Assembly: GCA_028717245.1 (NCBI GenBank)
Contig: JAQUOD010000005.1
Location: 18,637-82,636 of the forward strand
Reading direction: 5' to 3'
Length of the DNA stretch: 64,000 nucleotides
Origin: Candidatus Omnitrophota bacterium
GTDB lineage: Bacteria > Omnitrophota > Gorgyraeia > Gygaellales > Profunditerraquicolaceae
A program made the position numbers and the translations under genes. This document shows, piece by piece, positions 4,996-64,000 of this stretch. Within the stretch, counting starts at the first letter, position 1. Every line of letters starts with the position of its first letter. Below the pieces are notes generated by a model. That model had not been told where the DNA came from and did no database searches. It saw only the letters and a list, made by a program, of their open reading frames with translations.

Positions 4996-5511
4996 TTATT
5001 TCGGGCCGGCAATGAAATATATAACCCTGCCTTCTAACATAGGCTCTTTTTCTACCTGCCCGTCGTTCTGTAATTCCAGAATAAATTTATCGATAACCTT
5101 TCGGCCTATATCCAGATGCTCCATCTGCCTGCCGCGGAAGAACATGCTCACCTTGACCTTGTCTTTTTTCTTCAGGAAACTGATGGCATGTTTTACTTTT
5201 ATCTGGCAATCGTGCTCGTCGATATTAGGCTTAAGGCGGATCTCTTTTATGCGGGACTGGTGCTGGTGCTTCTTGGCCTCGCGTTCTTTCTTCTCCTGGT
5301 CGTATTTAAATTTAGTAAAATCGATTACCCGGCATACCGGAGGGCTGGCCGCAGGCGCAACCTCAACTAAGTCTAACTCGTGTTGATTTGCTATCTCCAG
5401 GGCCTGCTGAATAGGGACTACTCCCAACTGGTTACCGTCTGGCCCCACCAGGCGCACTTCTGGTACGCGTATTCTTTCGTTGGTGCGGATAAACTTTTTT
5501 ATCGTAACCAC
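4996..5511 (-). CDS. infC: translation initiation factor IF-3
   Basis: It shows IF-3 N- and C-domain motifs (RVPEVRLVGPDG...ALEIA...LDLVEV; KEIRLKPNIDEHD). It has a GTG start as read by the ORF track, consistent with non-ATG IF3 starts. Confidence 0.9.
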   Translation of the reverse strand: MVTIKKFIRTNERIRVPEVRLVGPDGNQLGVVPIQQALEIANQHELDLVEVAPAASPPVCRVIDFTKFKYDQEKKEREAKKHQHQSRIKEIRLKPNIDEHDCQIKVKHAISFLKKKDKVKVSMFFRGRQMEHLDIGRKVIDKFILELQNDGQVEKEPMLEGRVIYFIAGPK

Positions 5512-7573: not shown

Positions 7574-8242
7574 TCATGATGGTTCGCAATAAACAGTTGT
7601 GCTTTTATCCCAACCTGTATACGAACTCAAGCACTGTTGAGCCAAATTTATCTTCCTCTCAAGCCCAAAGCAATGTTTATAATAACACTGTTTAGCAATT
7701 TCTCTTGCCGCCATTTTACCGTATTTTAATACCCAAAAATTATTTCTGCTGTTATGAATCTTACCGAAAACTTCTAATAACCCCGCTATTGTGTCGCTTA
7801 ACCAGTGAACAAATTCTTCGGAGCCAGAATATATCCTCAGGCTCCATTGTTCTCCTTTATTGGTCGGGTGTACCCAGCGACGGATACATCCGTCACCGTC
7901 AATTACTCCTCTTAAAAAATCAACGAAATATTGATTTGGTATTTCTAGAGCACCCAATGTCAGAGATTTATTTTGTGTTAGCCCAATCGATAAAAGGAAA
8001 TTGTATAAATTTTTGTTTCCTACCTGAATATGAAAACATCTCTGATTTTTACTATTATATTTGATACCAATTTTGTTCTTGAGCCCGGTTGCGTCTTTAA
8101 TCGCCTGAAGGAATTGAGAATCTTTAGAGGTTATGTCTATATGTCTCCCATCCGGACATAAACACCCATCAGTTGCAATCAAACCTACCAAATACCAAAG
8201 ATTTGAACCTTCAATTTTCAATTCTTTTCGCTTATTCGGCAT
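7574..8242 (-). CDS. free-standing LAGLIDADG homing endonuclease (two-motif, monomeric type)
   Basis: This 222-aa ORF has two LAGLIDADG motifs (LWYLVGLIATDGCL and FLRGVIDGDGCI). It fills the whole spacer between tRNA-Cys and tRNA-Leu with gaps of 6-7 nt. Confidence 0.8.
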   Translation of the reverse strand: MPNKRKELKIEGSNLWYLVGLIATDGCLCPDGRHIDITSKDSQFLQAIKDATGLKNKIGIKYNSKNQRCFHIQVGNKNLYNFLLSIGLTQNKSLTLGALEIPNQYFVDFLRGVIDGDGCIRRWVHPTNKGEQWSLRIYSGSEEFVHWLSDTIAGLLEVFGKIHNSRNNFWVLKYGKMAAREIAKQCYYKHCFGLERKINLAQQCLSSYTGWDKSTTVYCEPS

Positions 8243-50206: not shown

Positions 50207-51970
50207 ATGATTGTCCCGATGAAAAAAGCCGCCATAATTATGCAGCAAAAGGATGCCGAAGAAGGCATTATGGCCTTGCGTTCTTTAGGCGTAATGCACG
50301 TAGAGCATCAGCAGGTGCCTAAAGGTAAAGATATCAGCCTCCTGGAAGAGGATTTGGCATTGGCGAATGAGGCGCTGGGAATTATTTCAGAAGCAGGATC
50401 CCTTGAAAAAAAACGACCCCGGGAAAAAGAAAAAGTTTTTGTTGATTGGAGGCAGACAGCCAGCCACATCATTGATTTATGGAAGAGGCTGGACCATCTG
50501 CAGGAATACTCAAAGGTCCTTACGCAACAGATAGGCGAATGGCAGGCCTGGGGCGATTTTGATCCGTCGGCAATAGCAGGCTTAGCAGAAAAGAATGTTT
50601 ATGTAAAACTCTATAGGATACCGAGAAAAGAATTACAGGGATTGCCTGTGGATGCAATTGTAGAGGAGATAACCTCTAAATCCGGAATGGTTTATTGCGC
50701 CGTAATCTCGCAAAAAAACATAGATATAGGGTTTAAAGAATTACAACTTCCCAGGCTTAGCCTTGGCTCAATGCAAAAACGGCTGACGGAAGACGCAAAT
50801 ATAATAAATGAAATTAAATTAAAACTGGATGAATACGGGTTTTACCGGGAAGAATTGTTAATAATAAAGCGATCCTTGGAAAGAGAGTTGGAATTCCATG
50901 AGGCCGTAAGCGGCATGGCGGAGACGATAGATTTAACGTATTTAGTGGGTTATGCCCCGGATGAAAATGAAGAGCAACTTATGGATTTAGCGAAAAAAGA
51001 AGGGTGGGGGATTCTTATTGGCGAACCTTCAGCCGAAGACAACGTCCCGGTTTTATTGCGTAACCCGAAATGGATTTCTCTCATCAATCCGGTTTTCAAA
51101 TTAATGGAAGTGGTCCCGGGTTACCGCGAGCTGGATGTCAGCCCCTTATTTTTATTATTTTTATCCCTCTTTTTCGGAATGATTATTGGAGATGCCGGCT
51201 ACGGGGCGGTATATTGCGCGCTTACTTTTTTAGCCCAACGTAAATACGCCAATAAAGTAAAAGATAAAAGGGTCTTCTTTTTATTTTATCTGTTCAGCTC
51301 CTGCGCTATTGCGTGGGGCCTATTAACCGGAACGGTTTTTGGCCAGCAATGGTATCTCGCCCAGGGCTTTCCAGCTCTGGCGCCGGCTTTAAATAATACT
51401 AAGTTTCTTATGTCTTTTTGCTTTTTGCTGGGGGCTGTGCAATTAAGCCTGGCGCACGTATGGCGGGCTTGTAAAAAATTTCCGTCGTTAACAGCGCTGG
51501 CAGATATCGGCTTTATTTGTTTATTGTGGGTAGGTTTTCTTCTGGCAAAGATGTTTATCCTGGGAGACCCCTTTCCGGTTGCCGGTAAATGGTTAGCTTT
51601 GGCAGGAGTTACATTAATCATATTTTTTGTCAGCCCGCAGAAAAATATCTTCAAGGCAATAGGCGAAGGGTTGGGGACGTTAGCGCTTGGCGCGGTGGGT
51701 AATTTCTCAGATGTAGTTTCTTACATCCGCCTTTTCGCGGTAGGGTTAGCCGGCGTGGCAGTGGCTGATTCCGTCAATATGCTTGCTGCCGGCGCAGGCG
51801 TAAACATTGCGGCACGGATAATTATTCTCTTTATCGGCCATACGATAAATATTATACTGGGGCCGATATCGGTGCTGGTACACGGTGTGAGGCTGAATGT
51901 CCTGGAATTTTCCTTATTGCACGGCAATGTTACCTGGAGCGGCCTGGCATATAAACCATTAAAGGAATAA
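50207..51970 (+). CDS. atpI: V-type ATP synthase subunit I (a-type membrane subunit)
   Basis: This 587-aa protein has a hydrophilic N-half and a polytopic C-half with a conserved Arg-containing helix. Confidence 0.8.
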   Translation: MIVPMKKAAIIMQQKDAEEGIMALRSLGVMHVEHQQVPKGKDISLLEEDLALANEALGIISEAGSLEKKRPREKEKVFVDWRQTASHIIDLWKRLDHLQEYSKVLTQQIGEWQAWGDFDPSAIAGLAEKNVYVKLYRIPRKELQGLPVDAIVEEITSKSGMVYCAVISQKNIDIGFKELQLPRLSLGSMQKRLTEDANIINEIKLKLDEYGFYREELLIIKRSLERELEFHEAVSGMAETIDLTYLVGYAPDENEEQLMDLAKKEGWGILIGEPSAEDNVPVLLRNPKWISLINPVFKLMEVVPGYRELDVSPLFLLFLSLFFGMIIGDAGYGAVYCALTFLAQRKYANKVKDKRVFFLFYLFSSCAIAWGLLTGTVFGQQWYLAQGFPALAPALNNTKFLMSFCFLLGAVQLSLAHVWRACKKFPSLTALADIGFICLLWVGFLLAKMFILGDPFPVAGKWLALAGVTLIIFFVSPQKNIFKAIGEGLGTLALGAVGNFSDVVSYIRLFAVGLAGVAVADSVNMLAAGAGVNIAARIIILFIGHTINIILGPISVLVHGVRLNVLEFSLLHGNVTWSGLAYKPLKE

Positions 51971-51979
51971 GGAGGCAAT

Positions 51980-52429
51980 ATGGAGAACAACCTGTTAATG
52001 CAATTTAAGGATTTAGGCGCAATTGCGGTTTTAGCGCTGGCTGCCTTAGGTTCGGGCGCAGGCGTAGGTATCGCGGGTATGGCGGCAGTAGGGGCATGGA
52101 AGAAGAATTTTTCCCAGAATAAGAGCGCCAATTTCCTTTTGGTGGCTTTAGTGGCTGCCCCCTTGACCCAGACTATTTACGGGTTTATTGTAATGAGTAG
52201 AATGATGGAGTTAGTGGCAAGAGGCCAATTCCTCTGGGCTATAGGAATTTTTGCGGGTGCGGCCATAGGCCTTTCGGCTTATTGGCAGGGTAAGTGCGCG
52301 GCAGCTGCCTGCGACGCCTTGGGTGAAACAGGCAAGGGTTTTGCTAACTATATGACGGTCCTGGGTATGACAGAGACAGTGGCCTTGTTTGTGATGGTCT
52401 TTACCCTTGTCGTTTTGGGCAAGTTTTAG
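51980..52429 (+). CDS. atpK: V-type ATP synthase proteolipid subunit K
   Basis: It is 149 aa with Gly/Ala-rich TM hairpins, a c-ring subunit. Confidence 0.8.
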   Translation: MENNLLMQFKDLGAIAVLALAALGSGAGVGIAGMAAVGAWKKNFSQNKSANFLLVALVAAPLTQTIYGFIVMSRMMELVARGQFLWAIGIFAGAAIGLSAYWQGKCAAAACDALGETGKGFANYMTVLGMTETVALFVMVFTLVVLGKF

Positions 52430-52462: not shown

Positions 52463-52539
52463 GGGCGGTTAGTTCAGCTGGTTAGAACGTCTCTCTTACA
52501 CAGAGAAGGTCAGGGGTTCAAGTCCTCTACCGCCCACCA
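52463..52539 (+). tRNA. tRNA-Val (anticodon TAC), CCA encoded
   Basis: The sequence is GGGCGGT-TA-GTTC-AGCTGGTTA-GAAC-G-TCTCT-CTTACAC-AGAGA-AGGTC-AGGGG-TTCAAGT-CCTCT-ACCGCCC-A-CCA. Confidence 0.85.
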
Positions 52540-52550
52540 AAATAAAAAAT

Positions 52551-53522
52551 ATGCACCTTCTCGAACGTACAAACAGGTTTAAAAGAATAGAGAGAAGATT
52601 TGATTCTCCCATTGAAGATTTGCTTTATCAGATGCATTGGCTGGAAGATATGAAGCATAGGGATATTGCCCTAAATTTGCATGCGCCGAGAGCAACAATA
52701 ACAAGATGGTTTCGCCGTTTGCAGGTGCCAACTCAGAGTTGCCGCAGATTTACTGATATGAATCTAACAAGTTGGCTATATAAAATTGGAAAATTAAAAA
52801 AGAAACCCCGCTATAGCGGTCCAGACAAAAGGCTCCAGCGGACAAGACAGGGATTAAATGTAGATTTCTTCAAGAAATGGTCAGTAGAGATGGCTTATGT
52901 ATTGGGATATTTCGCTGCCGATGGGTGCATGTTTATTAATCCGCGGGGGTCAAAATATATTTCATTTACTTCTTGTGACCGCGAAATCTTGCAGAAAGTC
53001 AAGCGGATGTTGGGCTCTGAGCATAAGTTTAGTGTAAAAAATAGGCAGAATAGAAACTGGAAAGATGCTTTTACCTTACAAATTGGTTCCAAAGAGATGT
53101 ATCAGGATTTAATAAAAAAAGGTTTTATGCCTAAAAAAGCATCTAGATTTAAATTGCCGGCCGTGCCTAAAAAATATATGAGGCACTTTATTAGAGGGTA
53201 TTTTGATGGTGATGGCAGCGTTACTTATGGGTATTTTAAAAGAAAAGATAGAAATAATAAGATGACTTCATACCTTTTAACTTGTTTATCTTCGGCAAAT
53301 TTACGTTTTTTAAGGGGAATCTCCAAGGTTTTGAAAGAAAATATAGGTATTAACGGAGGATATATAGATAAAAAAGGTGGCCACCTTGCTTATTCTAAGC
53401 TTGACAGCATTAAGTTATTCCAGTATATTTATACAAACGTTAATAAGGGGCAATACTTAGAAAGAAAATATAAGAAGTTTAGGAAGGCATTCGAAATTAA
53501 TAGGGGCTGTGGCCTAGTCTAG
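52551..53522 (+). CDS. free-standing LAGLIDADG homing endonuclease (second copy, two-motif type)
   Basis: It is 323 aa with the motifs AYVLGYFAADGCMF and FIRGYFDGDGSV. It starts 11 nt after tRNA-Val, and its last codons overlap the 5' end of tRNA-Asp. Confidence 0.8.
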   Translation: MHLLERTNRFKRIERRFDSPIEDLLYQMHWLEDMKHRDIALNLHAPRATITRWFRRLQVPTQSCRRFTDMNLTSWLYKIGKLKKKPRYSGPDKRLQRTRQGLNVDFFKKWSVEMAYVLGYFAADGCMFINPRGSKYISFTSCDREILQKVKRMLGSEHKFSVKNRQNRNWKDAFTLQIGSKEMYQDLIKKGFMPKKASRFKLPAVPKKYMRHFIRGYFDGDGSVTYGYFKRKDRNNKMTSYLLTCLSSANLRFLRGISKVLKENIGINGGYIDKKGGHLAYSKLDSIKLFQYIYTNVNKGQYLERKYKKFRKAFEINRGCGLV

Positions 53523-53578
53523 TTCATGGCGTCTCCCTGTCACGGAGAAGATCGCGGGTGCGAATCCCGTCAGCCCCG
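53502..53578 (+). tRNA. tRNA-Asp (anticodon GTC), enlarged D-loop
   Basis: The sequence is GGGGCTG...TCTCC-CTGTCAC-GGAGA-AGATC-GCGGG-TGCGAAT-CCCGT-CAGCCCC-G. The D-arm carries about 3 extra nt (TAGTCTAGTTCA). Confidence 0.75.
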
Positions 53579-53594
53579 CTTTTCGTTTCAGTAT

Positions 53595-53626
53595 CAAAAG
53601 CCACAATGCATCGTTGTGGCTTTTTG
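53595..53626 (+). terminator. rho-independent terminator after tRNA-Asp
   Basis: AAAAGCCACAA-TGCATCG-TTGTGGCTTTTT. Confidence 0.75.
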
Positions 53627-53817: not shown

Positions 53818-53960
53818 TTGCATTTGCTATCGCGTATGGTATAATTGTTTTAAAAGCAATAGTAGATAAGTAAGTGGTCTGGGAATATACAAAAGTATTC
53901 CCGGAGGATTTTCGATGGTCGGGCCGCCATCTTGCATGATAATGCGGGATGGCGTTTTTT
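53818..53960 (+). promoter_or_regulatory. promoter (TTGCAT-16-TGgTATAAT) plus leader with mutually exclusive antiterminator/terminator hairpins
   Basis: The leader contains GGGAATA...TATTCCC, then GATGG-TCGGGCC-GCCATC overlapping CGCCATC-...-GATGGCG-TTTTTT. This lies 34 nt upstream of ATG 53994. Confidence 0.55.
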
Positions 53961-53993
53961 ATTATCTAGGAAGGGAATTTTAAGTATCTACAT

Positions 53994-54644
53994 ATGTTTA
54001 AGGCATTACTATTTGTTGGTATAGCGTTTATTTTCACGGTTATGTTTGTTACTCCTATACGAAACTATATGAATAATCTTTTCTTGAGAGATAAATCTCA
54101 GCTAAAAGAAGAACAGATTATCGGAACGGTTTCAGGATACAGCCCGCGCGTAGAAGAGATACAAAGGATTTTAAAAAACGCTCATTTTGATCCCGGCCCT
54201 GCGGATGGAGTAATGGGTAGCCGCACCCGAAAGGCAATCAGGGAATTCCAGGAAGAAAAAGGTTTCTGGCCGAACGGCAGAGTGGATTCGAAAACCTGGC
54301 TTGAGTTAAATCGGGAAAAAGAAACGTTTAAGGAAGAAGCAAATGCGCAACCTTTGGCCTTGCTTTCCGAAGAGTATCCCCGTGACGTAAAATCTAAGGA
54401 AGAAATTGCAAAAATTAGAGAGCCCCAGGAGAAAATAGCCAAAGTAGCGTTTCCCCAAGACAGAAAAACACAAATTCAAATGGCCTTACAAAAAGCTAAT
54501 TTTTATAAAGGGAAGATTGACGGGAAAATAGGCCCGCAAACAAAAAAAGCGATCAAGGCATTTCAAAAGGCCAAAGGATTAAGGGCGGACGGTGCCGTAG
54601 GCGCTCAAACCTGGGCTGAGCTGAATAAGTATTTGAAAGAGTAA
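53994..54644 (+). CDS. secreted/membrane-anchored protein with two peptidoglycan-binding (PG_binding_1-like) domains
   Basis: It has an N-terminal TM/signal segment and two repeats of the DG..G..T..AI..FQ...GL..DG.VG..TW..L pattern. It is 216 aa. Confidence 0.7.
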   Translation: MFKALLFVGIAFIFTVMFVTPIRNYMNNLFLRDKSQLKEEQIIGTVSGYSPRVEEIQRILKNAHFDPGPADGVMGSRTRKAIREFQEEKGFWPNGRVDSKTWLELNREKETFKEEANAQPLALLSEEYPRDVKSKEEIAKIREPQEKIAKVAFPQDRKTQIQMALQKANFYKGKIDGKIGPQTKKAIKAFQKAKGLRADGAVGAQTWAELNKYLKE

Positions 54645-55466
54645 GTGATGCAAAAGGCAATGCTATTTTTGGCGCCATTTTTGCTTTTTTTGACAGATGC
54701 AGCCGCGCAAAAGATATCGTTATCCCAGCAGGAGATTCAGCAGATTGGTGCGAGAGTCTTTGAGAACGAATGCGCCTTGAAAGACGAAAACCTGATTACA
54801 TGGAATGAGGGCGAGGATTTTTTGTCTTTAGGGATCGGGCATTTTATTTGGCATCCAGCGAATGTAAAAGATTCTTTTGAAGGAAGCTTTATAAAATTCC
54901 TTGAATATGCAAAAAACTTTGGAGAGCAAATTCCTAGTTGGCTTGATATAACGCCGTTACCGGGGTGTCCATGGGGTTCACGCGACTATTTTTTAAGCGC
55001 GCAAAGCGACAGCCGGTTAACAGAATTACGAGAATTTGTGATAAGGACAAAGTCTTTGCAGGCCGCTTTTATTGTGAAGCGCTTAGAGGAGTCTTTGCCT
55101 CTTATGCTTAATATAATTCCGGAAAATAGGCGCGAGAAGATAGCTTCGCGGTTTCATCGTATCGCTTCTACGCCTTCAGGAATTTATGCCTTGGCAGACT
55201 ACGTAAATTTCAAAGGGTTGGGAATAGCGCCAACCGAAAAGTATCAAGGCAAAGGTTGGGGGTTACTTCAAGTTTTAGAGGGGATGAAGGGTAAAAATGA
55301 GGCTCCGGATGTTGTCAGAGAATTTGCCCGTTCGGCAAATGCCGTGCTTGAAGATCGTGTAAGAAATTCTCCCTCAGGCCGCAATGAACAGAAATGGCTG
55401 CCGGGTTGGAAAAAAAGGGTTAATTCGTATATTAAGCAGGAGGAGGCAATATGTTTACAAGAATGA
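54645..55466 (+). CDS. hypothetical secreted protein (signal peptide), cell-wall context
   Basis: It is 273 aa with an N-terminal signal peptide. No family was recognised by eye. It is flanked by PG-binding proteins. Confidence 0.45.
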   Translation: MMQKAMLFLAPFLLFLTDAAAQKISLSQQEIQQIGARVFENECALKDENLITWNEGEDFLSLGIGHFIWHPANVKDSFEGSFIKFLEYAKNFGEQIPSWLDITPLPGCPWGSRDYFLSAQSDSRLTELREFVIRTKSLQAAFIVKRLEESLPLMLNIIPENRREKIASRFHRIASTPSGIYALADYVNFKGLGIAPTEKYQGKGWGLLQVLEGMKGKNEAPDVVREFARSANAVLEDRVRNSPSGRNEQKWLPGWKKRVNSYIKQEEAICLQE

Positions 55467-55834
55467 TTTTGCCTGTTTTGTTTGTATTTACCTTAGTTGG
55501 ATGTGCTACAAACCCGAAGAAGCAGATCACGCAGTCACAGCCGGTAGCGCAAGAATCATATTCCCAGGATTACGACTATGATGATGCCTGGTCATCTGAC
55601 AGCTATGAAAAGCCGGCAAAGAAAACTTATCCTGAAGCCGCAATACAATTAAGCCCAAAGCAGATTCAGCGGGCATTAAAGAGCGCGGGTTTCTACCAAG
55701 GGCCTATTGACGGCAAGATCGGGTCAAAGACTAAAGAGGCCATTATTAAATTTCAGAAAGCAAAAGGCCTTAAGGCTGACGGAATCGTCGGTAAAAGGAC
55801 GTCTGCGCAATTGAGTAAATATTTATCCCGATAA
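55451..55834 (+). CDS. lipoprotein with C-terminal peptidoglycan-binding domain
   Basis: It has the lipobox LVGC and a C-terminal IQRALKSAGFYQGPIDGKIGSKTKEAIIKFQKAKGLKADGIVG repeat. Confidence 0.7.
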   Translation: MFTRMILPVLFVFTLVGCATNPKKQITQSQPVAQESYSQDYDYDDAWSSDSYEKPAKKTYPEAAIQLSPKQIQRALKSAGFYQGPIDGKIGSKTKEAIIKFQKAKGLKADGIVGKRTSAQLSKYLSR

Positions 55835-55837
55835 AAA

Positions 55838-56764
55838 ATGAAAGCAAAGAAAATATTTCTTTTTATAGCAGTGATTTTCTTTTTAAGCTTTGGGGCATAT
55901 TTTGGCCAGCAGTATTATGCAAAATTCCAAAAAGGCAAACAAGAGTATTTTCTCTATGAAACACAAAAATCTGCATGGCAGGAATTACAGCAACGCGTCA
56001 AGGCTGAAATAAGCCAGTTTAAGGGTGATGCCGGGGTAGTTATCAAAGACTTAGAAACCGGTTGGGAATTTTCGTATCAGAAGGCTAAGATGTTTCCCTC
56101 CGCGAGCCTGGCTAAGGTTCCCCTTATGGCAACGTGTTTTCTTGCGGTTGACCAAGGGAGATTTAAACTTAAGCGTAATATCGCGCTTAAATCAGCCGAT
56201 AAACTTACGGGATCCGGGGTCTTGAAAGATATGCCTGCAGGTGCCATCTTTACTGTAGAGAGGCTCATCGGCCTTATGATTTATGACAGCGATAATACCG
56301 CTGCTAATATCCTTACAAACCTAATTGGCATTGATTACCTGAATAACGCGTTTAAGGATTTTGGGCTAAAGAATACGGATTTATCCAGAAAGATCGCCGA
56401 TTACCAATCGCGGGATGAAGGTATTGAGAATTACACAACAGCTGAAGATATGGCTTTATTATTAGAAAAAATGTACCGCAGGGTCATCGGGAATAAAAAC
56501 GTTTCGGATCAGTGCATAAATGTATTGAAATTGACACGTATGAATGACCGTATTCCTAAGTATTTACCACCCGAGATAACCGTTGCGCATAAGACCGGCC
56601 TTGAGCGAGGCGTCTGCCATGATGCGGGCATAGTATTTACCCGTAAAGGCGATTTTATTATTGCGGTGTTGACAAAGCATCTAAATTCAAACAGCGCGCC
56701 TTCCAAAGAGTTTATCGCAAAGGTTTCATTATACGCTTATAAATATTTTGAGCAGTTACCGTAA
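55838..56764 (+). CDS. class A beta-lactamase-fold serine hydrolase
   Basis: It has the SxxK (SLAK), SDN (YDSDNTAAN) and KTG (HKTGLE) motifs in the canonical order, with an N-terminal TM/signal segment. It is 308 aa. Confidence 0.75.
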   Translation: MKAKKIFLFIAVIFFLSFGAYFGQQYYAKFQKGKQEYFLYETQKSAWQELQQRVKAEISQFKGDAGVVIKDLETGWEFSYQKAKMFPSASLAKVPLMATCFLAVDQGRFKLKRNIALKSADKLTGSGVLKDMPAGAIFTVERLIGLMIYDSDNTAANILTNLIGIDYLNNAFKDFGLKNTDLSRKIADYQSRDEGIENYTTAEDMALLLEKMYRRVIGNKNVSDQCINVLKLTRMNDRIPKYLPPEITVAHKTGLERGVCHDAGIVFTRKGDFIIAVLTKHLNSNSAPSKEFIAKVSLYAYKYFEQLP

Positions 56765-56773
56765 ATGGAGGTA

Positions 56774-57450
56774 ATGATGAAAACAAAATTTGCGCTGGTA
56801 GTATTTGCCATAGCGGCATTTTCATCATCGGGCTGCGCCTTCATTGAGAAAGCCCGCAGGGCGATGAGCTGGAAGCGGAAAATGCTAATTTAAGGTACAG
56901 GGTAACTCAACTACAGAAAGAAAAAACAAAAGAAGTGCAAAAGGTGTCCGGAGAAAAGGATAAAGAGCTTTCAGAGCTCGAACGGGCAAAAAGGGAGCTT
57001 GAGGAATCCTTAAAGAAAGAAATCGGGGATTACAAAGCAAAGCTCTAGATGACCGGGCGGGGGCCGGTGATAACTTTCTTATCGGAAGTATTTTTTGACT
57101 CCGGCAAGGACATAATAAAAGCTGATGGTAAACTTTCGCTTGATAAGGTCGCGGAGGTCTTAAACCGCGATATGCCTAATTCCCAGGTAGCGGTAGAAGG
57201 GCATACCGATAATGACCCGATAAAATATTCCGGTTGGAAGTCAAACTGGGAGCTTTCTTCTGGCCGCGCCTTGGCAGTCGTGCATTATCTTATCGGCGAA
57301 TGTAAGGTTGTGCCGCAGAGATTATCCGCAAACGGCTATGGCGAATATCACCCGGTAGCGCCTAATGATACGCCGCAGGATAAACAGAAAAACAGGCGGG
57401 TAGAAATCGTTATTCTGCCTTCTCAAGTAAGCAAGGTGAAGGCGCGCTAA
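56774..57450 (+). pseudogene. OmpA/MotB-family lipoprotein gene, apparently disrupted (frameshift plus in-frame TAG)
   Basis: The lipoprotein signal MKTKFALVVFAIAAFSSSGC is in one frame. A coiled-coil segment and the OmpA_C domain (track ORF 57049..57450; ...NRRVEIVI) are in another frame and separated by TAG at about 57046. Confidence 0.5.
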
Positions 57451-57467
57451 AAAAGGAGAGGGGTAAT

Positions 57468-58532
57468 ATGTATGCGCAAGCCCAAATAGTTTTGAATTAC
57501 ATAGTTTTCGGCAATACTATTTTCAGGTATTTGGTTGCTGCTTTTATATTTGCAGCCGGTATGCTAACTATCAAATTAATCATCCGCAAAGCCATACAGC
57601 GCTTAAAAAAGCTTGCCGAAAGAACAACCTCTACATTCGATAATTTTTTGGTTAATTTGCTGGAAACTATTATATTGCCTTTATTGCATTTGGTGGCTGT
57701 ATATCTTACGCTAAAGACCTTGGTCTTCCCCGAACTTTGGGAAAAAGCGTTTAATTATATTATTTTAGGGGTGGTTGTTTTTTTTGCGGTAAGAACAGCG
57801 ATTGCGTTCATCGGTTATGGATTTAAAGCGTACCTGAAGAAACAAGGCCAAGATGCCGCATTAGAAAAAAGTCTTTCGGGAATAATGGCCGTGGTGAAGC
57901 TGGTTGTCTGGGCCGGCGCGGCTATCTTCTTTTTGGATAATCTCGGATTTAAGGTTTCTGCGGTGATTACCGGGTTAGGCATAGGCGGCGTTGCTGTTGC
58001 GCTTGCTGCGCAAACTGTCCTTAAGGACCTCTTCAGTTATTTTTGCATCCTTTTTGACCATCCCTTCAAAGTCGGGGACTTTGTTATTATAGGCGATTTT
58101 ATGGGCACTATCGAGCACATCGGGATAAAGACCACGCGCATACGTAGCTTAGGAGGGGAGATGCTGATTTTTTCCAATTCCGATCTTACCGATTCGCGCC
58201 TGCGCAATTACAAATTAATGGAAAAGCGCCGTGTGGTATTTAAAATAGGAGTGGTGTACCAAACGCCGCTTAGGCAGTTAAAGGAAATACCGGAAATGAT
58301 CAAAGGCATTATTGCCAGCATTGACGATACGTTTTTTGACCGGGCGCATTTTCTTTCTTTCGGCGATTACAGCCTTATATTTGAAATCGTGTATTACGTT
58401 ATCGGCGGCGATTATAACAAATATATGGATACCCAGCAGCAGATTAATTTTGCCCTAACAGAGGAATTTGAAAAACGGGGCATAGAATTTGCTTATCCTA
58501 CGCAAACGCTGTATACGTATAAAGCATCCTGA
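57468..58532 (+). CDS. mscS: mechanosensitive ion channel, MscS family
   Basis: It has N-terminal TM helices and the MscS beta-domain VGDFVIIGDFMGTIEHIGIKTTRIRSLGGEMLIFSNSDL. It is 354 aa. Confidence 0.85.
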   Translation: MYAQAQIVLNYIVFGNTIFRYLVAAFIFAAGMLTIKLIIRKAIQRLKKLAERTTSTFDNFLVNLLETIILPLLHLVAVYLTLKTLVFPELWEKAFNYIILGVVVFFAVRTAIAFIGYGFKAYLKKQGQDAALEKSLSGIMAVVKLVVWAGAAIFFLDNLGFKVSAVITGLGIGGVAVALAAQTVLKDLFSYFCILFDHPFKVGDFVIIGDFMGTIEHIGIKTTRIRSLGGEMLIFSNSDLTDSRLRNYKLMEKRRVVFKIGVVYQTPLRQLKEIPEMIKGIIASIDDTFFDRAHFLSFGDYSLIFEIVYYVIGGDYNKYMDTQQQINFALTEEFEKRGIEFAYPTQTLYTYKAS

Positions 58533-58574
58533 TGGCCTAATGTATACGGGGCTGCCGATTTGAGATAAAAAAAG

Positions 58575-60269
58575 ATGAATAAACAAGACTTAGATAAAAG
58601 AAAGATTGCATATTTTACTATGGAGATAGGCCTTGATTCTAAAATGCCCACCTATAGCGGCGGATTAGGGGTTCTGGCAGGAGATACTATAAAATCCTGC
58701 GCGGATTTAGGCGTGCCGCTTATCGCCGTAACCCTGCTTAACGAAAAAGGTTATTTTGCGCAAAAACTGGACGCAGAAGGCGCCCAAGCAGAGGTTCCTG
58801 TGGACTGGCCGAAAGAGGAGTTTTTAACTCTTTTACCGGCACAAGTAAGCGTAAATATTGAAACAAGAGAAGTGAAAATCCGGATTTGGGAATATATAGT
58901 GAAGGGGATTACCGGCACCACCGTGCCTGTTTATTTTCTGGATACTAACTTACTGGAAAATGCCGGATACGACCGCACCCTCACCAGTTTTCTTTACGGA
59001 GGCGACCAGCGGTATCGCCTTTGCCAGGAAATAATCCTTGGCATAGGGGGCGTGAGGGCAATCGAAGCCATTGGCTATCAAAATATCGGAAAATACCATA
59101 TGAACGAAGGCCATGCCAGCCTCTTGGCTCTGGAATTATTAGAGAGGACAAAAAAAGACGGCGAAGAAGACATTTATAAGAAATATGACCTTGAGTCTGT
59201 AAGAAATAAATGCATCTTCACCACGCATACTCCTGTAGCTGCCGGGCATGACCGTTTTCCTCTTGATTTTGTAAAAAGAGCCTTGCGCAGCAACTTGCCT
59301 TTTGAAATGCCTGGTATATTTATCCGGGATAATGAAATGAATATGACCCTGATTGCTTTGAATTTGAGTAAATATGTTAATGGAGTAGCCAAGAAACATG
59401 GCGAGGTTACCCGAGAGATGTTTCCCGGTTATACCATAGATTCTATTACCAACGGCATTCATTTGTTAACCTGGGTGGCTACTGCGTTCAAAAGGCTTTA
59501 CGATAAATATATTCCCGGCTGGCAATCAGATTATTTTTCCTTGCGTTACGCCCTGAGTATCCCCAAAGAGGAAATATTACAGGCGCACAGGGAGGCAAAG
59601 AGAGAACTCATTGATTATGTAAATAGCCAAACAGGCATTGGGATGGACTATGATACCTTTACTATAGGTTTTGCCCGGCGCGCTACGCCTTACAAGAGGG
59701 CCGGTCTTTTATTAAGCGATATAAAGCGGTTGGTTGAGATTAATGATAAAGTAGGCAGGATACAAATCATTTATGCGGGCAAGGCGCATCCTAAGGATGG
59801 CGGAGGAAAAGAGTTGATAAAAAATATATTTTCAAGGATTAAAGAATTAAGCCCGGAAATTAAAATTGCATACTTAGAGAATTACGATATGGCGCAAGGA
59901 AGATTAATCACCAGCGGCGTTGACCTCTGGCTGAATAATCCCCTTCCGCCGCAGGAGGCCTCCGGAACCAGCGGGATGAAGGCCTGCCTTAACGGCGTGC
60001 CGAATTTAAGTATTTTAGACGGATGGTGGATAGAAGGGTGTATTGAAAACGTCACCGGCTGGGCAATCGGCTCGGCACAAAAGCAGAATACGGATAGCGC
60101 TCAAGATGCTGATGATTTATATCAGAAATTAGAAAAAGTGATTATTCCGATGTTCTACAAAGAGAAAGATAAATGGCTTGGAGTTATGCGCCACGCCATA
60201 GCGCTGAATGCTTCATTTTTTAATACTCAAAGAATGGTTCAGGAGTATGTCTTAAATGCTTATTTATAA
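58575..60269 (+). CDS. glgP: alpha-glucan phosphorylase (GT35, short GlgP/maltodextrin phosphorylase type)
   Basis: It has the N-terminal YFTMEIGL...SGGLGVLAGD signature of alpha-glucan family phosphorylases and is 564 aa. Confidence 0.8.
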   Translation: MNKQDLDKRKIAYFTMEIGLDSKMPTYSGGLGVLAGDTIKSCADLGVPLIAVTLLNEKGYFAQKLDAEGAQAEVPVDWPKEEFLTLLPAQVSVNIETREVKIRIWEYIVKGITGTTVPVYFLDTNLLENAGYDRTLTSFLYGGDQRYRLCQEIILGIGGVRAIEAIGYQNIGKYHMNEGHASLLALELLERTKKDGEEDIYKKYDLESVRNKCIFTTHTPVAAGHDRFPLDFVKRALRSNLPFEMPGIFIRDNEMNMTLIALNLSKYVNGVAKKHGEVTREMFPGYTIDSITNGIHLLTWVATAFKRLYDKYIPGWQSDYFSLRYALSIPKEEILQAHREAKRELIDYVNSQTGIGMDYDTFTIGFARRATPYKRAGLLLSDIKRLVEINDKVGRIQIIYAGKAHPKDGGGKELIKNIFSRIKELSPEIKIAYLENYDMAQGRLITSGVDLWLNNPLPPQEASGTSGMKACLNGVPNLSILDGWWIEGCIENVTGWAIGSAQKQNTDSAQDADDLYQKLEKVIIPMFYKEKDKWLGVMRHAIALNASFFNTQRMVQEYVLNAYL

Positions 60270-60296
60270 GTAAGCCAGGCGATATGAAGGGATTCT

Positions 60297-61310
60297 ATGG
60301 TTAAGACCAAAATAATCTGTACGCTCGGCCCGGCATCATCAAATGAGGCTATGATTAGGAAAATGATGCTTGCTGGTATGGATGTTGCCCGCTTGAACTT
60401 CTCGCACGGTAAACCGCATGATCTGCTTCATAGAATAGGCCTCGTCCGGCTTTTAAACGCGAAATACCGCAGGCGCATAAAGCTTCTCGGTGATCTTCAA
60501 GGGCATCGCATAAGAGTAGGCGGACGTATTGCTCCTGTTTTGCTTAAAAAAAGCCGGATAGTATGGCTTACCCAGCAAAATATAAAAGGATCGCATGAAA
60601 TAATACCTTTTGATTATCATGGCCCGCTACGCAGCATTAAGAATGGCCACCAGATATTTATAGACGACGGAAATATCGCCTTAGAAGTAATTGGCAGGTT
60701 TAAAAACAGACTTAAAGCCAAGGTAATAGCCGGCGGCCTGCTGAAAGAGCATAAGGGTGTAAATATCCCGGAGGCAAGGCTTGAATTTGGCGGGATAAGC
60801 CGGAAGGATATACAGGATATATTATTCTGTGAAGAGCGCGGCGTGGAATATATCGCGCAGTCATTTGTGCGTACTAAGAATGACATTTCGGATGTAAGAA
60901 AATTGCTTAAGCCGGGTTCAAAATGTCAGATTATCGCTAAAATAGAGAACAGAGAAGGCATAAAAAATATCGATGAAATAATCAAGGCTTCGGATGGCAT
61001 TATGATAGCGCGCGGGGATATGGGGGTATCACTGCCTATCTACGAAATACCTATCGTTCAAAAGATGATCATAAAAAAATGCAACCGCGCGGGGAAATTT
61101 GTCATTACCGCTACGCAGATGCTTGAGAGCATGACTGAGAACCTCAGGCCTACCCGCGCTGAGGTAACGGATGTCGCCAATGCCATAATAGACGGCACTG
61201 ATTTTGTTATGCTTTCGGCGGAATCGGCCGTGGGCAAATACCCGCTTGAAACAATAGTTATGATGAACAATATTATAAAGTTCACGGAAAGAAATTTAAA
61301 TAATTTATAA
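60297..61310 (+). CDS. pyk: pyruvate kinase (short form lacking C-terminal regulatory domain)
   Basis: It has [10 protein letters not shown]...[11 protein letters not shown], the TIM-barrel catalytic domain, and is 337 aa. Confidence 0.85.
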
Positions 61311-61323
61311 TAAGAAATAGCAT

Positions 61324-64000
61324 ATGGTTAATGAGGCTCTGGACATTACTAAAGAAATCTGGCATTCGTTGGCTGCTGATGAAGTTATCAAGCGGCTTGA
61401 AGTAGATATTTCTACCGGCCTATCCTCGGATGAGGTCAAGAAACGCAGGGATCGCTTTGGTTTAAATCAAATTACTCCCAAAAAAGGCACGCCCCTGTGG
61501 CTGCGTTTCTTGTTGCAATTTCATCAGCCCCTCATATATATTCTTCTGGTGGCGACGGCGACCACGCTATTCTTAAAAGAATGGGTTGACGCTTCGGTAA
61601 TTTTCGGCGTCGTTCTTATTAATGCCATCGTTGGCTTTCTACAGGAGGCCAAGGCCTTAAAGGCCCTTGAGGCTCTTTCTCGCTCAATGACCTCTTCCGT
61701 TTCCGTATTAAGAGACGGTAAGGAACAGCAAATTTCATCTATTGAATTGGTTCCCGGGGACGTGGTTATGATTGCCTCTGGCGACAAGATTACAGCTGAT
61801 ATGCGCCTTATTTATAGCCGAGACCTGCAAACTAACGAATCGCCTCTTACGGGAGAGTCTGTCCCGGTTGAGAAGCAAATTAAGCCCCTAGATGAGAAAA
61901 CCGTGTTAGCAGATAGATTAAATATGCTTTACGCCTCTATTTTTGTTACCTATGGCAGGGGGAAGGCTGTCGTTGCTGCCACAGGAGACGCAACTGAGGT
62001 CGGACGAATCTCAGAGTTAATCACTACGGCTGAGGATTTAGAAACGCCCCTTACAATTAAAATAGCCCACTTTAGCCGTTACCTTTTATTCGTTATCATG
62101 GGTCTGGCTGCACTTACTTTTGTTGTTGGAGTGCTTCGAGGCCAAGCATTTGTAGAAATGTTTATGGCCGCAATCGCACTTGCGGTAGGGGCGATTCCTG
62201 AAGGATTGCCTGCGGCTGTAACGATAACCTTAGCTATAGGCGTGGCAAGAATGGCTAAGCGCCGCGCTATAATTCGCAAGCTACCGGCAGTGGAAACGCT
62301 TGGCAGTACCGGAGTTATTTGTTCTGATAAAACCGGAACGCTTACTGAAAATCAGATGACCGTGCAAGAGATTTTTAGCGCAGGCCAGATATATCAAGTT
62401 TCAGGGGTAGGATATAGTTTTGAGGGCGCTATCCAAGAGTTTTCGCGTAAGTCCGGAGCGATATCTTCCATAGCTCTTAAGGAATGTTTGACAGCAGGCC
62501 TATTGTGTAATGATAGCAGGATTGTGGAGCGGCAAGGGCTGTTTCAGGTGGAAGGTGATCCGACAGAGGCGGCCCTTATTGTATCTGCGAATAAAGGAAA
62601 GAGCTTATTTCCCGCAGGCATGCCTGTGTTGCCGCGCAAAGACTCTATTCCGTTTGAATCGGAATATCAATACATGGCGACCTTTCATATTTTACCCAAC
62701 GGGGACGGCATTGTTTATTTAAAAGGTTCGACAGAAAAGATCTTAGCCAAATGCGTTAATCATCTCGATGAAAATGGCGAAATCCGTCCTTTAAAACGCG
62801 CCCTTATTGAGCATCAGATTGAAATTATGGCGGCAAAAGGGCTAAGAGTACTTGCTTTTGCTCGTGACAGTATTTCTTCGCAGAAAGATAGTATTGATCA
62901 TAGCGATATTACTGAATCTTTTACGCTTTTAGGGTTACAGGGGATGATAGATCCTCCGCGCAAGGAAGCGATTGAGGCTGTGCGGCGTTGCCATTCCGCG
63001 GGAATCCTTGTTAAGATGATAACTGGGGACCATGTACTGACGGCTAAAGCCATTGCCGGGCAATTAAACCTTAAAAGCCGTCTTGACGCGGAAGAGTCCG
63101 TTAAAAGTTTGGTAGCGTTAAGCGGAAGCGAACTTGAAAATATGAATGACGAGGAATTACAGGGATCTGTTGATCGTGTTAGCGTTTTCGCCCGCGTCAC
63201 TCCGGAGCAAAAGTTGCGGCTTGTCAAAGCGCTTCAGGCAAGAGGGTATATTGTGGCTATGACCGGAGATGGCGTAAACGATGCCCCGGCGCTTAAACAA
63301 GCTAATATAGGCGTTGCCATGGGTCGCACAGGCACAGAAGTCGCCAAGGAAGCAGCTGATATGGTCTTGACGGATGATAATTTTGCTTCCATTGAGGCCG
63401 CGGTGGAAGAGGGGCGATGCGTCTTTGATAACTTAAGAAAATTTATTGTCTGGACATTGCCGACAAACGCAGGTGAAGCCCTTGCTACTATGGTTGCCAT
63501 CTTTGGAGGTATTGTGCTTCCCGTTGCGCCGGTTCAATTACTTTGGATAAATATGACTACCGCTCTATGTTTAGGTATGATGTTGGCTTTTGAGTCTAAA
63601 GAACCCGATTTGATGCAACAGCCTCCCCGCGACCCTAAAATGCCGATTATGACCGGAGATCTCATTGCGCGGACAATTGTGGTGGGCGTGTTTTTAGCTC
63701 TTGGGGTTTTTGGGCTCTTTTTCTATGAAAGAAATAACGGACTAAGCATCGAAGAAGCGCGAACCGCAGCTGTCGGTGTTTTGGTTATAGGAGAGCTCTT
63801 TTATCTTTTTAATTGCCGTTCTTTATCGAGGCCTATGTTCGTCCTGGGGGTATTTTCAAACCGTTGGTTAATTTCAGGGGTTTTAATCATGATAGGTTTG
63901 CAGATGCTCTTTACCTATTCTCCCGTTATGAATCGGTTTTTTCATAGCGCGCCGATTTCATTGAATGCTTGGGTGCGGATTTTCTTGATTGGTTTATTGA
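61324..64000 (+). CDS. P-type cation-transporting ATPase (type IIA, Ca2+-ATPase-like; 3' end beyond window)
   Basis: ATG at 61324 is followed by an open frame to the window end. It has the DKTGTLT phosphorylation motif, TGES, and the GDGVNDAPAL hinge motif. It is absent from the ORF track because there is no stop in the window. Confidence 0.9.
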   Translation, partial: MVNEALDITKEIWHSLAADEVIKRLEVDISTGLSSDEVKKRRDRFGLNQITPKKGTPLWLRFLLQFHQPLIYILLVATATTLFLKEWVDASVIFGVVLINAIVGFLQEAKALKALEALSRSMTSSVSVLRDGKEQQISSIELVPGDVVMIASGDKITADMRLIYSRDLQTNESPLTGESVPVEKQIKPLDEKTVLADRLNMLYASIFVTYGRGKAVVAATGDATEVGRISELITTAEDLETPLTIKIAHFSRYLLFVIMGLAALTFVVGVLRGQAFVEMFMAAIALAVGAIPEGLPAAVTITLAIGVARMAKRRAIIRKLPAVETLGSTGVICSDKTGTLTENQMTVQEIFSAGQIYQVSGVGYSFEGAIQEFSRKSGAISSIALKECLTAGLLCNDSRIVERQGLFQVEGDPTEAALIVSANKGKSLFPAGMPVLPRKDSIPFESEYQYMATFHILPNGDGIVYLKGSTEKILAKCVNHLDENGEIRPLKRALIEHQIEIMAAKGLRVLAFARDSISSQKDSIDHSDITESFTLLGLQGMIDPPRKEAIEAVRRCHSAGILVKMITGDHVLTAKAIAGQLNLKSRLDAEESVKSLVALSGSELENMNDEELQGSVDRVSVFARVTPEQKLRLVKALQARGYIVAMTGDGVNDAPALKQANIGVAMGRTGTEVAKEAADMVLTDDNFASIEAAVEEGRCVFDNLRKFIVWTLPTNAGEALATMVAIFGGIVLPVAPVQLLWINMTTALCLGMMLAFESKEPDLMQQPPRDPKMPIMTGDLIARTIVVGVFLALGVFGLFFYERNNGLSIEEARTAAVGVLVIGELFYLFNCRSLSRPMFVLGVFSNRWLISGVLIMIGLQMLFTYSPVMNRFFHSAPISLNAWVRIFLIGLL

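Follow-up and report, generated by a model that had tools for sequence, protein, structure and literature searches.

An nhaA-I family riboswitch leader with an intrinsic terminator precedes a peptidoglycan-binding envelope operon in a Candidatus Omnitrophota bacterium

Background

What controls an operon of peptidoglycan-binding and other envelope genes in an uncultivated member of the Omnitrophota, when the leader of its first gene can fold in two ways that share one arm? This question was raised by a stretch of 64,000 nt of contig JAQUOD010000005.1 (GenBank assembly GCA_028717245.1, Candidatus Omnitrophota bacterium), which was analysed as a whole and is called the window below. Coordinates are window positions, and the leader and the genes behind it (53818–58532) lie on the + strand. 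A preliminary description of the leader had proposed a riboswitch or a protein- or tRNA-mediated attenuator, and had recognised no known riboswitch class.

The nhaA-I motif entered the literature in 2017 as a candidate cis-regulatory element linked to sodium (Weinberg et al. 2017, PMC5737381), and in 2022 it was validated as the Li+-I riboswitch (White et al. 2022, PMC9646797). The published representatives come from Alpha-, Beta-, Gamma- and Deltaproteobacteria, lie mostly 5' of nhaA and for the most part are believed to control translation; rare terminator-bearing variants were reported only from Deltaproteobacteria, before genes of unknown function (PMC9646797). The 'hypo' variant of Desulfobulbus propionicus is activated by Na+ (KD ~1.4 mM), and its group was named Na+-II (PMC9646797). 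Na+-II RNAs have a C at position 54, directly 5' of CGGGCC (GCCGGGCC), whereas most nhaA-I RNAs have a U, and the M4 (C54U) mutant of Na+-II responds to Li+, Na+ and NH4+ (PMC9646797). A search of the literature for Omnitrophota riboswitches or later Na+-II work turned up no papers other than those of 2017 and 2022.

Results

Identification of the leader

An Rfam scan of the whole window at the gathering threshold returned seven tRNAs and one nhaA-I aptamer (RF03057), and nothing else. The aptamer match runs from 53875 to 53932, is full-length (model positions 1–55 of 55) and scores 47.3 bits, above the gathering score of 37 (E = 3e-06 over the whole window, 2.3e-08 in a local search). Between 53600 and 54100, no other riboswitch or leader family in Rfam, including DUF1646/Na+-I and T-box, matched at E ≤ 1. 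No further copies of the motif were found within the window; the sole exact GGTCGGGCCGCC is that of this leader, and matches with one or two mismatches occurred at chance level.

The Rfam alignment gives both hairpins of the aptamer a name. What had been called a conserved-looking hairpin is P1 (53878–53905; 5' arm 53878–53888, loop ACAAAA 53889–53894, 3' arm 53895–53905), flanked by the conserved (U)GGU on its 5' side and AGG on its 3' side. What had been called the antiterminator, GATGG-TCGGGCC-GCCATC, is P2 (53914–53931), in which GAUGG(U) and (G)CCAUC enclose the invariant loop CGGGCC (53920–53925), closed by GGU/GCC. Alignment to the published constructs places U53919 at the equivalent of position 54 in the D. 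propionicus construct. The window RNA has all the conserved GGGU, AGG and GGUCGGGCCGCC nucleotides of nhaA-I but one, the first G of GGGU, which is replaced by a U, as it also is in 13 of 126 relatives among the matches listed. Two sites whose alteration abolishes function in D. propionicus, the AGG that follows P1 (altered in M2) and the CG in the loop CGGGCC (altered in M3), are both kept in the window RNA.

The leader is a member of a known, curated riboswitch family and not of a new class. The preliminary description was right in suspecting a riboswitch, but the class had already been described, as nhaA-I, i.e. Li+-I/Na+-II; it was found here by an Rfam scan, and such a scan is routine. 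The element lies in a 5' UTR and is co-directional with its gene; that gene, however, codes for a PG_binding_1 protein, and no NhaA gene lies downstream. This missing transporter neighbour does not exclude membership of nhaA-I, because the 2017 description already mentioned, and so allows, rare 'peptidoglycan-related' gene associations (PMC5737381). The departures from the published description are the phylum, the combination of U54 with a terminator and the envelope operon as target.

When Rfam was run in E-value mode, positions 53877–53965 also matched the Bacteroides sRNA BTnc201 (E = 0.042), which would make the leader a small trans-acting RNA that ends at the terminator. However, with 24.5 bits this match stays far below the gathering score of 105, and it comprises a hairpin plus terminator only, the same bases match nhaA-I far better, and the element always lies directly 5' of a co-directional gene. 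The BTnc201 identity was rejected as a generic hairpin-plus-terminator resemblance, and a small RNA of this kind is extremely improbable.

Promoter and alternative structures

A putative sigma-70-type promoter was read from the sequence at 53818–53845. It consists of a -35 hexamer TTGCAT (53818–53823), a 16-nt spacer and an extended -10 element, TGgTATAAT (TG 53837–53838, hexamer 53840–53845), which was found where the preliminary description had placed it. The -35 hexamer matches the consensus at 3 of 6 positions, which explains why the promoter was absent from the list of the promoter scanner. Judging from these elements, the start of transcription is probably near 53852, some 23 nt 5' of the aptamer. 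Among the related leaders listed, 112 -10-like hexamers lie at 0–49 nt upstream of the aptamers versus 45 at 50–109 nt, an enrichment that would fit a start upstream of the hairpins.

Reading of the sequence also placed the claimed hairpins, their common CGCCATC segment and the T-tract where they had been described. The hairpin GGGAATA...TATTCCC (53881–53902) extended in MFE folds to a stem of 11 bp (53878–53905). The 126-nt leader folded at -43.2 kcal/mol (z = -4.96), a value equalled by 0 of 200 shuffles; from this and the local nhaA-I match, we consider the leader structured beyond chance.

The third hairpin is an intrinsic terminator (53925–53960), with a 13-bp stem (53925–53954, seven of the pairs G-C), the loop GAUA and U6 at 53955–53960. 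Its arms are CGCCATCTTGCAT-GATA-ATGCGGGATGGCG in the DNA and CGCCAUCUUGCAU-GAUA-AUGCGGGAUGGCG in the RNA. A terminator scan found it independently, by far the strongest + strand terminator in 53900–61600. In its 5' arm, CGCCAUC (53925–53931) is also the 3' arm of P2. Nearest-neighbour energies were -38.6 kcal/mol for P1 plus terminator versus -27.4 for forced P1 plus P2, and -21.2 for the terminator versus -6.1 for P2 when the hairpins were taken alone. With the terminator state favoured over the aptamer state by 11 kcal/mol, termination (OFF) would be the default. The switch would be an ON switch, since a ligand must stabilise P2 during transcription for read-through to occur; the D. propionicus variant with the same platform was switched ON by antitermination in vitro (PMC9646797).

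The regulated operon and its neighbourhood

The first gene (53994–54644, ATG at 53994) encodes a protein of 216 aa with two PG_binding_1 domains (Pfam, E = 5.4e-33), the peptidoglycan-binding protein of the preliminary description; a hydrophobic N-terminal segment was read from its translation. A Shine-Dalgarno-like sequence is present before this gene, but only at a distance.

The next ORF (54645–55466) encodes a conserved 273-aa protein whose hydrophobic N-terminus suggests that it is exported. This protein had no match in Pfam or NCBIfam and no relative in the PDB by sequence; it has at least 7474 homologues, mostly from Omnitrophota, and shares 100% identity with a hypothetical protein from a Candidatus Omnitrophica MAG. 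Its invariant residues include N41-E42-C43 and H66, and E57 is nearly invariant. The AF2 model (mean pLDDT 89.4) gave a GH46 chitosanase (1qgi) as best Foldseek match in the PDB, which was not significant (E = 0.36, TM 0.41) and gives a weak hint of a lysozyme-like fold. Neighbours of the 273-aa gene in related loci encode PG_binding_1 proteins, Cation_ATPase, Na_Ca_ex, Na_H_Exchanger and H_PPase.

The third gene (55451–55834) encodes a 127-aa protein with one PG_binding_1 domain (Pfam, E = 3.9e-18), and its N-terminal ...LVGC suggests a lipoprotein; PG_binding_1 domains are the sole domains of both the 216-aa and the 127-aa protein. It is followed by a gene (55838–56764) for a 308-aa class-A beta-lactamase-like serine hydrolase (Pfam Beta-lactamase2, E = 2.3e-58). 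This protein reached 133 bits with NCBIfam bla_class_A, under the cut-off of 200, and as judged from the sequence it could equally well be a beta-lactamase or a serine hydrolase that acts on peptidoglycan.

Three-frame translation of 56777–57450 revealed a broken OmpA/MotB-like gene for a peptidoglycan-anchoring protein. A lipoprotein-like N-terminus, a coiled-coil and an OmpA domain (ORF 57049–57450, Pfam E = 5.2e-20) are spread over two frames, with a frameshift and an in-frame TAG at 57046–57048. Orthologues in three related loci (L002, L003 and L010) are intact (223–224 aa); the broken copy may be a pseudogene, an assembly error or a case of recoding. The co-directional gene behind it (57468–58532) encodes an MscS-family mechanosensitive channel (Pfam MS_channel domains). 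The terminator scan of 53900–61600 showed no strong terminator between that of the riboswitch and the MscS gene, and the OmpA-like and MscS genes may share the control of the riboswitch. It is a reasonable inference that the operon strengthens or remodels the wall and the outer-membrane tethers under salt stress. For annotation, the leader should carry the label of a cation riboswitch of the nhaA-I family and its operon that of a cation- or salt-responsive one, which gives the first functional handle on a conserved, uncharacterised envelope cluster of the Omnitrophota.

Upstream of the leader lie the genes for tRNA-Val(tac) (52463–52539) and tRNA-Asp(gtc) (53503–53579). Between them is a 323-aa ORF (52551–53522) with LAGLIDADG_3 and LAGLIDADG_1 domains, the last 20 nt of which run into the tRNA-Asp gene; this ORF resembles a free-standing homing-endonuclease gene that has inserted into a tRNA cluster. 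Further upstream, at 50207–52429, a gene for a 587-aa multi-pass membrane protein without a Pfam match at E ≤ 0.01 is followed by an ATP-synt_C (c/K-type proteolipid) gene. These two genes may belong to a V/A-type ATPase operon that ends just before tRNA-Val.

Orthologous loci

The contexts of ten homologues of the 273-aa protein were compared, and the loci (numbered with the prefix L) were scanned with Rfam. A cluster of genes for a PG_binding_1 protein, the 273-aa protein, a PG_binding_1 lipoprotein, Beta-lactamase2 and OmpA recurred. An nhaA-I aptamer was found directly 5' of the orthologous 216-aa gene in L002 (3235–3287), a further Omnitrophota contig, in the same position as in the window, and another heads the cluster in L007 (2634–2689). 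A response-regulator/histidine-kinase pair that leads the cluster is preceded by nhaA-I in L006 (448–504) and in L131 (358–414). L006 has two further copies, one within the cluster, before genes for a PG_binding lipoprotein, a beta-lactamase-like protein and OmpA (5434–5488), and one before Band_7 genes (7654–7700). In L003 and L010 the aptamer precedes small ORFs and then an Na_Ca_ex gene.

The Rfam scan detected no riboswitch at the orthologous cluster in L003, L010 and L004/L005, and no nhaA-I copies in L004/L005, L008, L009 and L132. The association of the riboswitch with the envelope operon is recurrent, not universal.

All eight copies (that of the window and seven in L002–L010) show the same succession of P2 3' arm, short variable hairpin, GCCAU complement and T-run. 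Had orthologous leaders lost the alternative pairing, this would have spoken against the proposed competition of antiterminator and terminator; the pairing is kept, including in L002. With the nhaA-I aptamer match, the common CGCCAUC arm and the recurrence of the pairing in relatives, the competing hairpins stand as first described.

As a separate observation, the three nhaA-I riboswitches of L006, an Omnitrophota contig, lie within 8.8 kb and each has its own terminator, which suggests a clustered cation-responsive 'island'.

Survey of related leaders

Species-representative genomes were scanned with a pattern of fixed P2 (AUGGUCGGGCCGCCAU) plus GRAGG, which yielded at least 120 loci, a biased sample of the relatives. 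Three of the matches, inside genes, were due to chance. The others came from Omnitrophota, Elusimicrobia, Verrucomicrobiota (including Akkermansia), Planctomycetota, Spirochaetota, Desulfobacterota-type "delta" MAGs, Nitrospirae, Acidobacteriota and others. A re-scan of 19 loci with Rfam confirmed nhaA-I at the gathering score in 18 (20 matches), while L012 remained below the threshold; the DUF1646 model had no match at its gathering score in 31 related loci. Together with the earlier loci, the survey gave at least 126 unique aptamers.

P1 covaries strongly. Among the 126 aptamers listed, pair 3 is GC in 76, AU in 34 and GU in 12, and pair 5 is AU in 49, GC in 45 and CG in 14. An alignment of 61 sequences showed changes on both sides in eight of nine P1 pairs, with 93% of the cells paired. 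Double-change cells numbered 121 versus 36.6 in shuffles, none of 500 shuffles reached the observed score, and pairing collapsed to 36–59% in slid controls. The inner P2 pairs are uninformative on covariation because the search pattern fixed them; the outer P2 pair covaries in the relatives (GC 48, AU 6, GU 5 in the same alignment).

For the terminator, each sequence was folded separately and scored for re-use of the P2 3' arm within 45 nt, with control sites taken from the same loci. A P2-overlapping terminator was present in 88 of the 123 scorable aptamers among the matches listed, versus 13 of 1533 control CCAT sites (0.85%). The median hairpin energy was -18 kcal/mol, and the T-run mostly started 21–27 nt after CCAU. 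In a MAFFT alignment of the 61 leaders the aptamer was in register and the terminator 3' arm was not, and for this reason terminator covariation was not counted. By taxon, among the matches listed, the terminator occurred in 34/34 Omnitrophota, 7/7 Planctomycetota, 9/9 "delta", 14/19 Elusimicrobia and 2/20 Verrucomicrobiota.

Every relative listed has U54, a base fixed by the pattern. A search for C54 variants in 0.96 Mb of fetched loci found none; it revealed one additional genuine copy, in L053, which was found independently of the pattern and also has U. Terminator-type U54 nhaA-I RNAs are common well outside the Deltaproteobacteria, which extends the published distribution.

L053 itself, from a human-gut Akkermansia muciniphila MAG, carries two nhaA-I-type aptamers (~959–987 and ~4007). 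The one at 959–987 lacks a terminator, and behind it lies a GT2+HAD fusion gene, which possibly serves compatible-solute synthesis.

The cross-phylum comparison bears on whether the leader needs a ligand at all. It might be a protein- or tRNA-mediated attenuator, or a terminator that insulates the operon from the tRNA-Asp gene, which ends at 53579, 240 nt upstream; ligand binding by the window sequence is, moreover, a prediction. However, a separate hairpin with a T-run lies just after the tRNA (~53598–53626), a promoter lies between tRNA and leader, and the aptamer nucleotides are conserved across many phyla before unrelated genes. A local insulator is disfavoured because it would not show such cross-phylum conservation. 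The protein- or tRNA-mediated attenuator of the preliminary description is unnecessary, and no T-box or other leader family in Rfam matched. We regard a ligand-independent leader as very improbable, and prefer an nhaA-I riboswitch.

Genes downstream of related riboswitches

The first sizeable ORFs downstream of the riboswitches were clustered and annotated, and all counts given here are those among the matches listed. The largest group was Glyco_transf_20 (20; trehalose-6-phosphate synthase of the OtsA type, often with a fused Cache domain), followed by MscS, directly behind the riboswitch at 14 other loci, and Band_7/SPFH (11 in the main cluster and one singleton). A GT2+HAD fusion of Verrucomicrobiota occurred six times and an unannotated family of 139–176 aa, mostly of Verrucomicrobiota, five times. 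Na_H_Exchanger was found three times plus one singleton, Na_Ca_ex three times and PG_binding_1 three times (window, L002 and L006). OmpR-type response regulators, DapB and OmpA occurred twice each, and DUF1646, an Rnf/Nqr subunit, GH15 trehalase-like, pentapeptide, TPM and other proteins once or twice each. No NhaA-family protein (PF06965) was encoded downstream among the matches listed.

These genes look like a salt or osmotic-stress regulon, a picture that is biased because the pattern fixed P2 and GRAGG and the matches listed are part of all matches. The set overlaps with the minor nhaA-I associations already published (otsA 16, mscS 3, DUF1646 4; PMC9646797) and with the Na+-I regulon.

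Discussion

Mechanism

The leader belongs to the nhaA-I family and can form two mutually exclusive structures, which are conserved and covary in the relatives. Very probably it acts as a transcriptional ON riboswitch of this family, which comprises the Li+-I and Na+-II variants. In the mechanism that we infer for the window leader, as regards its start, ligand, direction of switching and extent of read-through, P1 and P2 would fold as the aptamer once transcription has begun near 53852. A bound cation would hold P2 together and deny its CGCCAUC 3' arm to the terminator, so that transcription would read through into the operon. Without ligand the far more stable terminator would form, and the transcript would end at about 53960.

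Ligand

The most likely ligand is Na+, or Na+ and Li+ without discrimination, which would report salt or osmotic stress; strict sensing of Li+ is less likely. A Na+ or mixed response is favoured by the terminator platform, by a target gene that is not a transporter gene, by an osmotic-stress regulon that lacks NhaA, by a foot of P1 like that of Na+-II and by the behaviour of the C54U mutant, which has the same conserved nucleotides as the window RNA at the positions compared. The points that lean towards Li+ are U53919 and the full Li+-I core; U53919, as in the Li+-selective majority, favours Li+ or a mixed specificity as far as the sequence can tell. We give a response dominated by Na+ about an even chance, and a broad response to Na+, Li+ and NH4+ seems decidedly unlikely.

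A strictly Li+-selective response would make the leader a canonical Li+-I riboswitch and the envelope operon part of a response to lithium toxicity. RF03057 is the very family that was validated as Li+-I, and the validated aptamers of P. monteilii, R. eutropha and A. caulinodans likewise have a U before CGGGCC and the full GGUCGGGCCGCC core. However, the validated members were described as mostly translational and before nhaA, and the authors took a terminator platform and non-transporter genes as signs of another ligand (PMC9646797). The genes downstream of the relatives are of the osmotic-stress type, with no NhaA among the matches listed. The C-G foot of P1 is like that of Na+-II, a comparison that involves only four validated RNAs and is a lead rather than a test. 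We regard Li+ selectivity as unlikely, and a Na+ or mixed response remains our preferred reading.

U54 terminator-type RNAs are abundant, among the matches listed, in Omnitrophota, Elusimicrobia, Planctomycetota and some Desulfobacterota. We tentatively suggest, at somewhat less than even chances, that they make up a distinct functional subclass whose signal is Na+ or salt stress and not Li+. If so, its regulon would comprise trehalose synthesis, MscS, SPFH, Na+ exchangers and the peptidoglycan-binding, envelope-remodelling operon, C54 would not be the determinant of Na+ specificity, and the Li+ label would be wrong for much of the family outside the Proteobacteria. Terminator-type nhaA-I RNAs are neither confined to Deltaproteobacteria nor always C54, and the genes found with them suggest osmotic stress and not Li+ detoxification. 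What determines specificity for Li+ versus Na+ can now be tested directly with a handful of natural sequences.

Comparison with known riboswitches

The window RNA shares a similar two-hairpin architecture with Na+-I (the DUF1646 motif), which usually also has a terminator platform. The Na+-I regulon comprises Na+ transport and osmotic-stress genes and has a connection to dapB and peptidoglycan (White et al. 2022, PMC9337991); genes for DUF1646, DapB and Rnf/Nqr likewise occur behind relatives of the window RNA. However, Na+-I is set apart by different conserved nucleotides in lower P1 and in the P2 loop (PMC9646797), and its model does not match the window RNA at E ≤ 1.

With Li+-I the window RNA shares the two-hairpin aptamer, the 5' GGU, the AGG after P1, the GGUCGGGCCGCC core of P2, the U before CGGGCC, the location in a 5' UTR and the predicted ON response, and it scores above the gathering threshold of the family. 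It differs in its occurrence in Omnitrophota, in its intrinsic terminator and in its position before a peptidoglycan-binding envelope operon. At the foot of P1 it has C-G (GGUC...GGAGG), like Na+-II, whereas the three validated Li+-I RNAs have G-C (GGUG...(G/A)CAGG).

Na+-II has the same scaffold followed by a terminator that uses the P2 3' arm as its 5' arm, is an ON switch and likewise precedes a non-transporter gene. The differences are that Na+-II has C54 where the window RNA has U53919, and that it was reported only from Deltaproteobacteria, whereas the window belongs to Omnitrophota. At position 54, the window RNA matches the engineered M4 (C54U) mutant of Na+-II.
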